IMG/VR virus record: IMGVR_UViG_3300020214_000005
Span: 1 to 64,000 of that record
DNA length: 64,000 nucleotides
Reading direction: 5' to 3' (one strand)
Origin: a virus
Of this stretch, positions 20,870 through 25,300 are shown in pieces. Made by a program: the position numbers and the translations under genes. The notes under the pieces were generated by a model. That model was not told the origin of the DNA. It searched no databases and saw only the letters and a program-made list of their open reading frames with translations. How positions within the stretch are numbered: position 1 is the first letter of the stretch; each line of letters starts with the position of its first letter.

Positions 20870-22378
20870 CTCGCGGCGGCGAGCGGAACGTAGCGCGACG
20901 TCAGGGTGAACGCAAGCGAACCCTGTTCGAGTCTCACCACGCCAAGCCTGCGCGGGCGTTGGTGAAGCGAAGTGCAGCGTTTTGGCGGAAGTCGCGAGAA
21001 CGGATATCGTTCGAGTCGGCGACAAACGACGCAGACGATGCGTGCCCTGGCACGCACAGGCTTTGCCGATCGTCGGAGCGATGTGAGCGCCACGAAGCGG
21101 TCGCGAACCGAGGGAACGTGGGGCGAACCACGGCGGGGCTCTTGACCTACCGCTGGGATTCGAGAAGCACGCGTTGCCCTTGCGCAGCAGGCTACAGCGG
21201 GCGGGGTCCGAGGGAATCCGCGGCGGCGAGCGGAACGTAGCGTGACGTCAGGGTGAACGGAAGCGAACCATGCGAACATCGTAAGCGCAGCGCGCAACGT
21301 TCGAGTCTCACCACGCCAAGCCTGCGTAGGCGTTGGTGAAGCGGAGTGCAGCGTTTTGCCGGTGCCGGCAAACGACGTGGACGAATAGGAAAGGCAGTCG
21401 CGCGGACGAGCATCGCGAGGCGTGTGCGACAGGCGGTCCCTTCGCCAGTGCCGCCCCTATCGTCAGAGCGGGATGAGTGCGGCGAAGTCGTCACAAACCG
21501 AGGACTCTGAGGGCGAATCCCAGCGGGGCTCCTGAGTGCGGGGATTTTCGAGCGTTCTGGCGGACGAGGAGAAAGAACCAGCGCCTGACGAAGTCGTGCG
21601 CTGGGGCTTAGCCGCAGGCGCGCGGTGCTTTAGCGGAGCGCAGCGCAGCGGGCTATAGCGTCCGGCCGCCAGAGCGCAGGGCGTGGAGCAAGACTCCCGG
21701 AGACGTGGCGACCCCGGGCTCCCTCGCAGAGGGGCTTCAGCGGGGCGCCCGTCGACGGGACTGCCGAGTTCAGGCAGACCCGATCGTCCGGTAGCGATCG
21801 TAAATCGACAAGAGAGAGAAGCAAGAAAAACTTTGAAGTTACGGTCAGAACGAGGGTGGACACGGGACCGCGAAGTCGCTTGGCGAAGCAAGTCGGACTT
21901 CGTCGACTTGAGGAGTCAGCGACTGCGGGACCGGGGATCGCCCGAGAGCGTCGGAGACCGACCGTAACTTCAAAATTTTTTTGCGTAGCGAACGGTCGAT
22001 GACGAGGTCGTGGCGAAGCTTTCGACCAGCGTGCGAGCACGGCGCCAGCCGTTGCGAGAGGACGATCGGGTCGGGGCAAGACGCCGCGTGAGTAGTTTCC
22101 GAGCGGAATGTAGCGTGACGCCAGGGTGAACGGAGCGAACCCTGCGAACATCGTAAGCGCAGCGCACGATGTTCAGAGTCTCGCCACGACAAGCCTGCGC
22201 GGGCGTTGGCGAAGCGAAGTGCAGTGAGTGGTGCCCGCCGGAGACTGCGCGGGACTCAAGGACGCCGCGTGAGTAGTTTCCGACCGGGACGTAGCGTGAC
22301 GCCAGGGTGAACGGAGCGAACCCTGCTTTGAGTCTCGCCACGCCAAGCTTGCGCGGGCGTTGGCGAAGCGGAGTGGGA
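20870..22378 (+). repeat. Repeat family B (GTAGCGTGACGYCAGGGTGAACG..GCGAACCCTG...GAGTCTCRCCACGCCAAGC...GGCGTTGGYGAAGCG)
   Basis: Four copies near 20875, 21222, 22100, 22280. Confidence 0.85.
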
Positions 22379-25300
22379 GGAGGGGTGCCCGCCGGAGACC
22401 GTGCGGGACTCAAGGACGAGACCGGGAGCCACGAGTTGGTAGCTGTTCTTTCTCCGGTAAGCGGGGGAATCGACGGTTTGCGCAGCAAACTTGAGAGGCG
22501 GAGTCTGCGTCTGGGGAAAGGCCGTGCTGTACCCGAACGACGCCGAGTCGTGGCGAGGCTAGGAGGGATCGCAAAGGAAGCGTGCGAGCAGGGCGCAAGG
22601 CCTTGCGAGAGGCGAGGGGCGACCGGTGCCCGACCCCGCGTGGTGGGCATGCGAGGCGCCGACTGGGCGGGACTCTTGAGCTTCGTCCGAGCAGACCCAA
22701 CCGGCCGCTAGTGGTCCTAATCGAAGGCGACCGGAGGAGAAAGGCTTTGAGCTTTTTTTTCGTTAACCGGGCGAGCGAGGGTGGACGCGGGACCGCGGAG
22801 CGCAACGAGGAACGGCGCACTCGGCGGGGGCGCCGTTCGAGAGATCGAGTATCGCTGACTGCCAGTTGCGTTGCGGTTTCTTCGGAGGAGTCCGGATGTG
22901 ACCGGCGGAGGGAGGTTCGGTCGCGGAAAGTCCACGGTAATGGAGCGACCTGAATTCCCGTAGCCGTGAGTCATCTGGATCGTAGACGGCTTGCCGCGAC
23001 GCACGAAGAATGCGCAGAGCATAGGCAGAAGGCGTTGCGCGACGCAGTCGTCGCGAAACGAGATCGGTTGAGCGGAGCGGGACCGGGGATCGCCAGTGCG
23101 AACGGCCGGTTAACGAAAAAAAAGGTCGAAGTTTCTACGTAGTGAGCTTCGATTAGCGAGGTCGAAGCCGGAGCTTTCGACCAGCGTGCGAGCAGGGCGC
23201 AAGCCTTTGCGAGAGGCCGGTTGGGTCGGGACGAGACCCCGCGCGGGGGATCTCTCAGCCGCGACCGGGCGGGACTCCGCAACGGAACCGACCGTTACGA
23301 GCGGGCAGCGTCAGAACCGGCCAAAGCGGGGGAATCTCTTCGTCCTTACGCGGGCATTGTTCGGGAGGTGGCGCTGTGCGAGCGACAGCGTAAGGACGAC
23401 GAGAGGCGGCAGGTCCGCGTGGACGGTTGTGTCCCTATGGCGAGGTGAGGATACGAAGCCGGGGCGCAGTGACGAGCCGAGATTGGGGAAGCGTGCGAGC
23501 AGGGCGCCAGCCCTTGCGAGAGGCGAGTGCACGGGAGGTGCCAGATCCCCGCGTGGACGGTACGCGAGGCGCCGACTGGGCGGGACTCCGCAACGAGACT
23601 CGGCGAGAGAGCAGGTAGCGACGATTAGATGAAATCTAGCGAGCCGGGAGGACCGGACGGAGTCGGGTCAACCGGAAGTTTGCCGAGGCCGAGACCAGGG
23701 CGAGGCCGTAAGACGAGCGAAGCGAAGCGAGCGAGCGGCGGGAAACTGACGGTTGCGAGGCCAGATTTGATCTAATAGGGACGAACCCAACGCCACGAAG
23801 CAAGCCGGGGCGAGCGAGTGGGGTAGGTGCAGTCAGCGTGTCGAGCAGGCCGCTAGGCGTTGCGAGAGGCGAGCGAGACGAGTGCCTGTCCCCGCGTGGT
23901 GGGCATGCGAGGCGCCGACTGGGCGGGACTGCGGACCTGCCCTGCTCTGCCCTTCGTCACGAGAGTGGTCCGGGTTCTAGTGAGCGGAGCGAGCTAGTAC
24001 CCACGGGACTACCGAGTGACGGGAGTCGTTCGTTCGAAGAAAAGGGCGACATCAAGGGGTAAGCGGCAGAAGACGTTCGTCTTCAAACGCTTCACCGGGA
24101 TGTGCTCCTAGTATTCGGCGACGACGATGTCGGGACTCGTGAGCGTGGCTAGCCACCGGACGACGAAGTCGAAGCCGTGTCGTTTCTGCAGCCACACGAA
24201 GTGCCGTGCGTGGAGCGCCGCGGCGCGACCCAGCACGGGGACGAACCAAGGGTGAGGACACGGATGCGAAGAGCAGCCCGCACAGCCCGAAGTGCCGTAG
24301 CGAAGCCTGGCATGTCGGCGCCGCTTAGGCAGCCGGCAGGCTGTGAGCGGACCGCGCCCATCTTTGGGCGAGGCGGATCTCTTGGGCGCTCCCGAGACGT
24401 AGCGAGCGGAGGGCAGAAGAGCTCCGGCGTCTGGCGGTAGTGAAACGGGCTCCCAGCAATCCGCACGAGGGTGGCGTCTTGAAGAAACGCTCAGGCGAGA
24501 CGAGACGAACGCACCGAATGAAACCTGATGAGCGACGGGCCCCCGCAACCGCGGCTGCCTTGGCAGCGGATTTCGTTGTCGCGAGCGACGACGATAACGG
24601 ATTACCTGTCCCCACGGAGCGCCGGGGCGAAGCTTCGGCTGCCGGGAGGGATCGGGCGGGGGTTTGTTCGCCGAATGCGCGAAGCGCCTTGAGCGAACCC
24701 CGTCGTCGGCGCGTCTCGTAGGCGCGACCCAGAAACTCCGAGCGGTCAGGAAGACCGTCGCGTTTCAAGGACACGAACGCCAATGAGCGGTATCCGAACG
24801 TCGCGAGGGCAAGTTCGGGGACGCGCCCGAAGTCCTTCGGACGAGTGGCGCGAGCGGGGCGTTCGGGGTGAGGCGCGACGCCGGTCAGGCGTTCGCGGTG
24901 AGTGGATCCGACGGTGGCGGTCTCGCGGGTGGTGGCATTTCCCGGAGCGGAGCGACGGGACCGGGGAACGCAGCGAGCTTCTCTCGAGCGGGGCGACGCA
25001 GGAGCCGTTGCGAGGGGCGAGCGGGCACCAGCGAGCAGATCGAGTGAGCGGGGGACGCGGCTGTAGACGAGTTGGTAGTAGGAGCGCTCTGAGCGTCGGG
25101 CGAGAGGATCACGGGAGGTGCGGTAGACCAGACCGGCCGTGCTGAACCCGGAGGGTTCGCAAAGAAGGTCGCCAGTCGTGCGAGGAGCGAGTGCGCCAAA
25201 CGAGTCGTGCAACGAATCGTCGGCGCCCTGAGCCCGAGAGCCACCGGAGGGATCGTCCGAGCCGACTTGCCCCGCAGGGGCGCGAGGATGGCGAACACTA

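Follow-up and report, generated by a model that had tools for sequence, protein, structure and literature searches.

Two paralogous modules in a 14.6 kb gene-free tract of a freshwater phage (IMG/VR record IMGVR_UViG_3300020214_000005, 97.9 kb) fold on the + strand into long nested units whose innermost long-range helix, P3, has been swapped for unrelated sequence between the paralogs and in a related phage and yet still pairs, revealing a conserved single-stranded structure of a kind not described before. The analysis covers the first 64 kb of the record (the window, 64,000 nt). Coordinates are window positions unless an L-numbered locus is named; L028, L030, L032, L033, L035 and the like are loci on contigs of related phages. 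Our preferred explanation, to which we give a probability of about 0.55, is that the tract is transcribed by read-through of the operon upstream into a structured RNA, in which P3 serves as a sequence-free duplex clamp or processing stalk.

Two nested units in a gene-free tract

The original prediction had described a perfectly paired closing stem in each module, the two unrelated in sequence and set among the same three context motifs. Both stems are there: that of Module 1 (21832-21846/21960-21974) pairs over 15 bp and encloses 113 nt, that of Module 2 (22752-22770/23106-23124) pairs over 19 bp and encloses 335 nt, and the alignment of the modules has the three motifs in common. With mismatches allowed, the arms reach 21 nt (95%) in Module 1 and 29 nt (90%) in Module 2. 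Chance was gauged with 200 dinucleotide-preserving shuffles of the 13.4 kb stretch 17500-30900, where 11 perfect inverted repeats have arms of 12 nt or more no further than 600 nt apart, against a mean of 1.1 in the shuffles. The shuffles, in which similar repeats in matched context would have counted against the original prediction, gave a longest arm of at least 15 nt in 4/200 cases and an arm of 19 nt in 0/200. Within the whole tract, runs of six or more T or A occur only in these two modules. The earlier observation is real, and stronger than first stated.

The two stems belong to P3, the innermost of three nested long-range helices, P1, P2 and P3, of which the outer two enclose each module and had been overlooked. 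Unit 1, the full nested unit around Module 1, occupies 21777-22072 on the + strand (minimum free energy -144.9 kcal/mol, z -7.4). Its P1 is a 13-bp perfect inverted repeat with a gap of 270 nt (21777-21789 with 22060-22072), and its P2, from the helix list, joins 21798-21809 to 21995-22005. The AT-rich left arm of P3 (21821-21846), made up of a 9-bp A-rich extension and the 15-nt arm first noted, pairs with 21960-21984, at the end of which stands T7. Inside P3 lies a conserved core (P4-P6 with a short apical hairpin, 21854-21943) in which CGG-GA-CCG faces CGG-GA-CCG, forming tandem G.A, and hairpins 3' of it at 22006-22052 carry a conserved downstream block, as seen in the module alignment and the helices.

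Unit 2, around Module 2, repeats this plan on the + strand at 22694-23227 (-272 kcal/mol, z -7.6) and has an ortholog in L030 (11499-11923). P1 is again a 13-bp perfect inverted repeat (22694-22706 with 23215-23227, gap 508 nt) and P2 a perfect helix of 10 bp (22717-22726/23147-23156). The AT-rich P3 pairs 22744-22770 with 23106-23132 and consists of a conserved outer 7 bp, T8 and a hypervariable inner 10 bp. It encloses the conserved core with an apical domain of ~240 nt (22776-23100), known in five diverged copies, and the 3' hairpins with the conserved downstream block follow at 23160-23207 (same evidence). The length of P3 is 24 bp in Unit 1 (9+15) and 26-27 bp in Unit 2 (7+19); in L030 it runs unbroken for 26 bp, and the overall range is 24-29 bp.

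Units 1 and 2 are 64% identical in their left halves and 67% in their right halves. The Unit 1 core is also found in Unit 2, in L030 and at 27476-27825, and the apical part is a short hairpin in Unit 1 versus the ~240-nt domain in Unit 2; the module core and apical domain recur at 27476-27825 and 27826-28150. The two units are paralogous copies of one + strand folded unit, and its architecture is a long nested rod: P1, P2, a perfect Watson-Crick AT-rich P3, a core with tandem G.A and a variable apex.

The purine-rich structured tract that holds the modules (16505-31098, + strand) was delimited from open reading frame (ORF), stop codon, composition, Rfam, promoter and ortholog evidence. Genes of typical third-position GC end at 16504 and restart at 31099, with no ORF of typical third-position GC in between. 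Recoding was rejected as an explanation, since stops occur across all six frames of 17500-30900 under any single or double stop reassignment. A candidate ORF from TTG 22747 is not conserved; on our reading of the alignment, the L030 frame reaches TGA after five codons. The + strand is 38% G, 20% A, 27% C and 14.5% T, and its purine-rich composition is repeated in the orthologous tracts of related phages. At the gathering threshold an Rfam scan of the window returned only a tmRNA and two tRNAs, all outside the tract, while a permissive scan of 16400-31400 (E<=5) gave a single microRNA match, judged to be chance, and matched no family. There are no tRNA-like genes or notable tandem arrays in the tract, no phage-type promoter anywhere in its 14.6 kb, and sigma-70 and terminator signals at no more than shuffle level. 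A span-limited global fold merely expanded its domains to the permitted span.

If the tract is RNA, the phage would devote ~15% of the 98 kb contig to a feature without protein-coding content. GOLLD, ROOL and OLE are single RNAs of roughly 0.6-0.8 kb, each with an Rfam model. Like the tract they are large, highly structured non-coding RNAs, often borne by phages or prophages, and their function is poorly understood (PMC12286853). The tract is unlike them in its 14.6 kb length, its many diverged modules, its lack of an Rfam match and the dominance of GNA triloops. If it is RNA, it would be by far the largest conserved, covariation-supported block of non-coding structure known in a phage; if it is folded single-stranded DNA (ssDNA), it would be a new DNA-level device in a tailed phage.

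Pairing is under selection while P3 turns over

A metagenome scan with a conserved neighbouring protein of 288 amino acids (aa) yielded 14 related contigs, and tract sequence is present at 72-95% identity in L028, L030, L033, L032 and L035. In these relatives the tract lies directly downstream of a + strand operon and is a mosaic, with a block order that differs from phage to phage.

Folded independently, the L030 ortholog of Unit 2 keeps P1, P2, P3 and the core, its P2 differing in sequence and register from that of the window. Just outside P3 the two phages match exactly for 23 nt to the left and 26 nt to the right. Within P3 the outer part is unchanged and both arms have new sequence across the inner 10-11 bp, CGTTAACCGG and its complement in the window standing against GAGACGGCGAA and its complement in L030, with perfect pairing in both; the homopolymer section is T8/A8 in the window and T7/A7 in L030, both arms having changed together. 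The original prediction had named loss of pairing in homologs as evidence against a selected structure, and in this one ortholog the P3 arms are replaced yet perfectly paired. Three copies of the unit (Unit 1, Unit 2 and L030) have three unrelated P3 sequences. The long GC-rich stems of the tract, unlike P3, are identical or nearly so between orthologs, and P3 differs from all GC-rich helices in its wholesale turnover of sequence, in paralogs and orthologs, between unchanged adjacent flanks. Whether the molecule is RNA or ssDNA, P3 is a clean natural example of a helix whose sequence turns over fully while pairing and flanks are held.

A second hypervariable stem occurs in Module X (28197-28267, + strand), where a 15-bp AT-rich stem (13 Watson-Crick pairs and two G.T) encloses 41 nt. 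The flanks of this site are conserved in 4/4 phages (L030, L028, L033 and the window), and the arms fall into three unrelated pairing classes, paired at 13/13, 13/13 and 13/13 positions and, in the fourth phage, by 13 Watson-Crick pairs and two G.T. The L030 and L028 stems are one compensated pair apart.

At L030 11674-11715, a perfect 11-bp AT-rich hairpin replaces ~240 nt of the window's apical domain. AT-rich perfect hairpins therefore mark the spots at which orthologous tracts differ in structure.

Selection on structure, one half of the original prediction, finds support independent of both stems. Across Unit 1, Unit 2 and the L030 ortholog, 4/13 pairs of P1 have changed on both arms and still pair: Units 1 and 2 differ at three P1 positions, each compensated on the opposite arm, and L030 differs from Unit 2 by two compensated pairs and one C.T mismatch. 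In the hairpin 23340/23388, two adjacent CG-to-AT changes in L030 are mirrored on the opposite arm. The apical domain was aligned in five copies (window 22776-23100, 27476-27825 and 27826-28150; L030 15350-15665; L033 19545-19860), and in 25/86 pairs both partners have changed, where column shuffles give 12.8+-2.4 (0/500 reach the observed number) and sliding the partners by 1-3 columns gives only 5-10. Coming from five sequences, this apical covariation is supportive, not conclusive, of pairing kept by selection. Together with the P1 covariation and the whole architecture kept in the ortholog, it shows that pairing is under selection. Purifying selection on the tract is further indicated because some of its blocks (18756-19592 and 20193-20489), at 91-95% identity between phages, outmatch the neighbouring coding gene at 82-86%.

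How, then, are new P3 arms made? With 10-11 consecutive pairs changed between 100% identical flanks, point substitution and compensation are insufficient, and a concerted process is therefore needed. G.T pairs are scarce in the AT-rich stems, at 2/107 against the 14% G.U among canonical pairs of the covarying apical helices, a comparison biased by the ascertainment of 6/7 AT-rich stems in a perfect-repeat search; among four orthologous stems not found by that search, G.T accounts for 2/60 pairs where 8.4 are expected. The obvious candidate is template switching, which is known to create and homogenise hairpin arms (PMC8794818, PMC5453318). The likeness is that clustered changes keep or create perfect complementarity of the arms in one event; the difference is that one switch copies an existing neighbour, whereas here both arms differ and are AT-rich amid GC-rich sequence. 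Window and L030 have different sequence on either arm, and a search of the surroundings in the other genome found neither new arm, so that one switch does not explain the change; repeated or two-step events might. Selection on structure and templating of one arm from the other had been offered as alternatives, and both appear to hold: pairing is selected, and replacement seems concerted, with arm-from-arm templating partly favoured for P3 itself. The origin and upkeep of long perfect stems, a long-standing question, is directly testable in this phage family with its several sampled relatives.

The same process could in principle have left the AT-rich stems as functionless by-products of template switching or fold-back repair at break-prone spots, with only the GC-rich helices under selection. 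AT-rich hairpins do stand exactly where orthologous tracts differ (the inner half of P3, Module X and L030 11674-11715) and are nearly free of G.T pairs, and the published cases cited above document the mechanism. Against this, a stem occupies the same two sites in all sampled phages (2/2 and 4/4) between conserved flanks, and the changes are concerted, both in T8/A8 to T7/A7 and in the compensated pair that separates L030 from L028. Arms copied from the GC-rich templates available locally would not be expected to be AT-rich, and a difference in both arms between orthologs is beyond one switch. We regard this explanation as unlikely.

Perfect inverted repeats of 13-29 bp around segments of 41-335 bp are also what would be expected of invertons flipped by a site-specific recombinase, and the 41 nt at 28212-28252 have a pyrimidine bias opposite to that of the tract. 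The enclosed segments, however, have the same orientation in all comparable pairs (Module 1 and Module 2, Module 2 in the window and L030, Module X in L030 and L028; 2-4 sequences per site), the stems are nested within further covarying helices, and no invertase was recognised near the tract. Unrelated arms at orthologous sites would be intolerable to a sequence-specific recombinase, and we think inversion very improbable here.

Still less probable, in our judgement, is that the modules represent miniature mobile elements bounded by terminal inverted repeats, or cassettes that entered existing palindromes. The AT-rich inverted repeats against a GC-rich background, and the mosaic tract with its blocks reordered between phages, would suit such elements. 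But none of the seven arm sequences occurs in the genome or in any fetched locus other than at its own two positions, no cassette is multi-copy as a unit, and only the arms change between orthologs while the adjoining outer and inner sequence is conserved, the reverse of fixed termini. By inspection, none of the seven stems has both integron attC core sites (RYYYAAC ... GTTRRRY); the nearest is the second-site stem of L030, which has ATAAC at its end and restarts with GTTATTC.

Searches beyond these relatives gave little. No match to the phage was found in cultured-phage DNA, and the nearest cultured phages are actinophages, with ~30% identity in the primase-helicase. In IMG/VR, two 18-mer motif scans gave chance matches only, without tract similarity, and the conserved P3 flank had no match; a protein scan of the genome collection found none, and the 182-aa protein of the right flank, used as a probe, reached distant phages only, none with the tract. 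Contigs matched in IMG/VR by the primase and 288-aa probes terminate at the tract start. Metagenome assemblers seem to break at the tract, and similar regions are for this reason probably under-sampled. The relatives' contigs L020/L029/L046 (one 24.9 kb contig) and L047 end ~0.3-1.7 kb from its left edge.

The stem of an invariant hairpin with a 12-bp stem (19715-19748) has exact matches in L048 and L050 (Streptomyces) and L049 (a Solirubrobacteraceae metagenome-assembled genome). We rejected these actinobacterial loci as relatives of the tract, as they look like ordinary terminator-type hairpins and have no other tract similarity.

RNA or single-stranded DNA

The structure belongs to the + strand. 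Isolated mismatches in helices seeded on Watson-Crick pairs, counted in four tracts, are G.T rather than A.C by 28:4, versus 12:9 in coding DNA, and in covarying helices the ratio is 51:6. In 16505-31098, the + strand has 72 copies of GCGNAGC and the - strand one. Fold z-scores of about -6 to -8 on both strands are useless as a strand test because perfect arms score alike on either strand.

As to the molecule, the covarying apical helices have G.U at 14% of their canonical pairs, a share that RNA ordinarily shows. The operons on both flanks have the purine-rich + strand as their sense strand, the phage's promoter type occurs on that strand on either side of the tract, at 11322, 12188 and 31152, with none inside it, and in relatives the tract comes straight after the + strand operon. 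We lean towards RNA as the folded molecule, a little more firmly than we hold the full explanation given at the outset.

In that explanation, the tract would be transcribed rightward by read-through from the + strand operon at 11.3-14.6 kb and would fold as RNA, each unit forming a nested rod in which P1 and P2 evolve like ordinary RNA helices. P3 would be a sequence-independent double-stranded clamp, roughly two helical turns long, marking off the conserved core and most likely acting as an RNase III-type processing stalk or an insulating helix. New P3 arms would arise in a concerted event, for instance a template switch across the hairpin, or replacement after which one arm is copied from the other, and selection would then retain only perfectly paired versions.

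Processing stalks flank the ribosomal RNAs in bacterial rRNA operons, and the early RNA of phage T7 has RNase III sites. As there, a structured RNA within a long precursor would be enclosed by long-range helices some two turns in length, with pairing kept and sequence free. P3 in Unit 1, Unit 2 and L030 is the near-perfect flanking helix of ~20 bp or more that a stalk for RNase III calls for, and in P3 and the Module X stems pairing is kept while sequence varies. The differences are that the stems here are replaced wholesale between close relatives, with no drift, that the modules match no known RNA, and that transcription and cleavage are putative here. A terminator was also considered for P3. 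In Unit 1, with an A-run before it, T7 after it and a loop of 113 nt, it resembles a bidirectional terminator with a large loop; in Unit 2 the T-run is on the 5' side on both strands. A terminator role is not general, because the polarity of P3 in Unit 2 is the reverse of that in Unit 1.

Several points weigh against the processed-RNA explanation. The unit orthologs compared are one for Unit 2 (L030) and none for Unit 1, and the second-site stems, at 13-15 bp, are short for an RNase III stalk. A single template switch cannot renew both P3 arms. Loop usage differs from what natural structured RNAs typically show: GNA triloops are in excess, but on the + strand alone (106 versus 46+-7, z=8), GNRA loops are if anything depleted (23 versus 33) and UNCG is not enriched. 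The core motif GGGACCGCG, finally, keeps to the + strand in the spacers of a minus-strand gene cluster at 34.1-35.3 kb, which hints at a polarity set at the DNA level.

The last two of these points bear on ssDNA, a serious rival to RNA, although in our estimate a distinctly less probable one. A + strand left single by replication, by end resection or as the displaced strand of an R-loop over the G-rich tract would fold the same structures; the units would in that case be DNA-level elements, such as signals for priming or initiation or hairpins that resist nucleases, and P3 would be an AT-rich duplex that melts readily. The sequence d(GCGNAGC) is a classic, very stable and nuclease-resistant DNA mini-hairpin. 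What keeps the rival serious is the enrichment of GNA triloops closed by C-G, which GNRA loops do not share; the 72:1 strand ratio of GCGNAGC, the perfect Watson-Crick duplexes of P3 and the repeated breaks of the relatives' assemblies at the tract also fit it, as does the + polarity that GGGAC and GGGACCGCG hold over 16.5-44 kb, minus-strand gene cluster included.

On the other side, G.T pairs at 14% in covarying helices would be costly in DNA and are ordinary in RNA. No polymerase, reverse transcriptase, HUH protein, RNase III or invertase was recognised by Pfam or PHROG on the neighbours and the giant virion proteins, and rolling-circle genes were likewise not recognised in the phage. We know of nothing by which one strand of a tailed double-stranded DNA phage would stay single over 14.6 kb. 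Frpo and ssi sequences found within conjugative plasmids' leading regions are also long, strand-specific hairpins of a few hundred nt; they are active only when single-stranded, and Frpo restores a -35/-10 duplex immediately upstream of a gene that the transferred strand carries (PMC11541004). The tract is unlike them in having no promoter hexamers, no downstream gene and no known ssDNA stage: neither module has a promoter-like site, and no gene follows for at least 8 kb.

Within the tract, a minority of GCGNAGC copies cap stems of at least 5 bp, and the usual context is A before and G after.

A more far-reaching possibility, which we consider doubtful, is that the tract is one giant modular structured RNA (or folded DNA strand) whose AT-rich stems are strain-specific 'lock-and-key' duplexes under diversifying selection. 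They could determine which segments, or which molecules within a co-infected cell, pair with one another, and so provide every phage lineage with a private folding or assembly code or a mark of self and non-self. In the antisense-RNA immunity of phages P1/P7 (c4 RNA) and P4, short complementary segments differ between related phages and stay complementary. The likeness lies in variable complementary segments within conserved surroundings; the difference is that theirs serve gene control between antisense and target, while the two arms here form the closing stem of a local module, and neither a regulated gene nor a target in trans was found.

Other features of the phage

Outside the tract, GGGACCGCG occurs nine times in intergenic spacers of 33798-41973, always on the + strand and including 34127, 34811 and 35257 between minus-strand genes; over this range it pairs with an upstream TCCGGAGTCC-type segment into a hairpin. 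The phage's promoter-like consensus, TTGCAA and TAGCGT separated by 17 nt, stands at gene starts, on the + strand at 11322, 12188, 31152, 36315, 38530, 40405 and 47799 and on the - strand at 34696, 35132, 36278 and 38493; it is absent from the 14.6 kb tract.

Adjoining the tract at 15767-16504 (- strand) is an endolysin-like gene of 245 aa. It is absent from the close relatives L020, L028 and L030 and is found at 71-86% amino acid identity in unrelated viral contigs of 40-60% GC; from this distribution it looks like a recent acquisition. Tried as a synteny probe, it was rejected, being found in unrelated phages and missing from close relatives.

The tmRNA gene (103 bits) lies at 51441-51823 and the two tRNA genes at 37975-38048 and 48751-48824. 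From 59894 to genome position 74812 (- strand, L044) runs an ORF of 4972 aa with C-terminal NUDIX and zeta-toxin-like kinase domains, in which Pfam recognised no polymerase domain. A second large stretch of odd composition is found at 1-4200, where the + strand is almost free of A (A 3.2%, C 34.5%, G 35.9%, T 26.4%).

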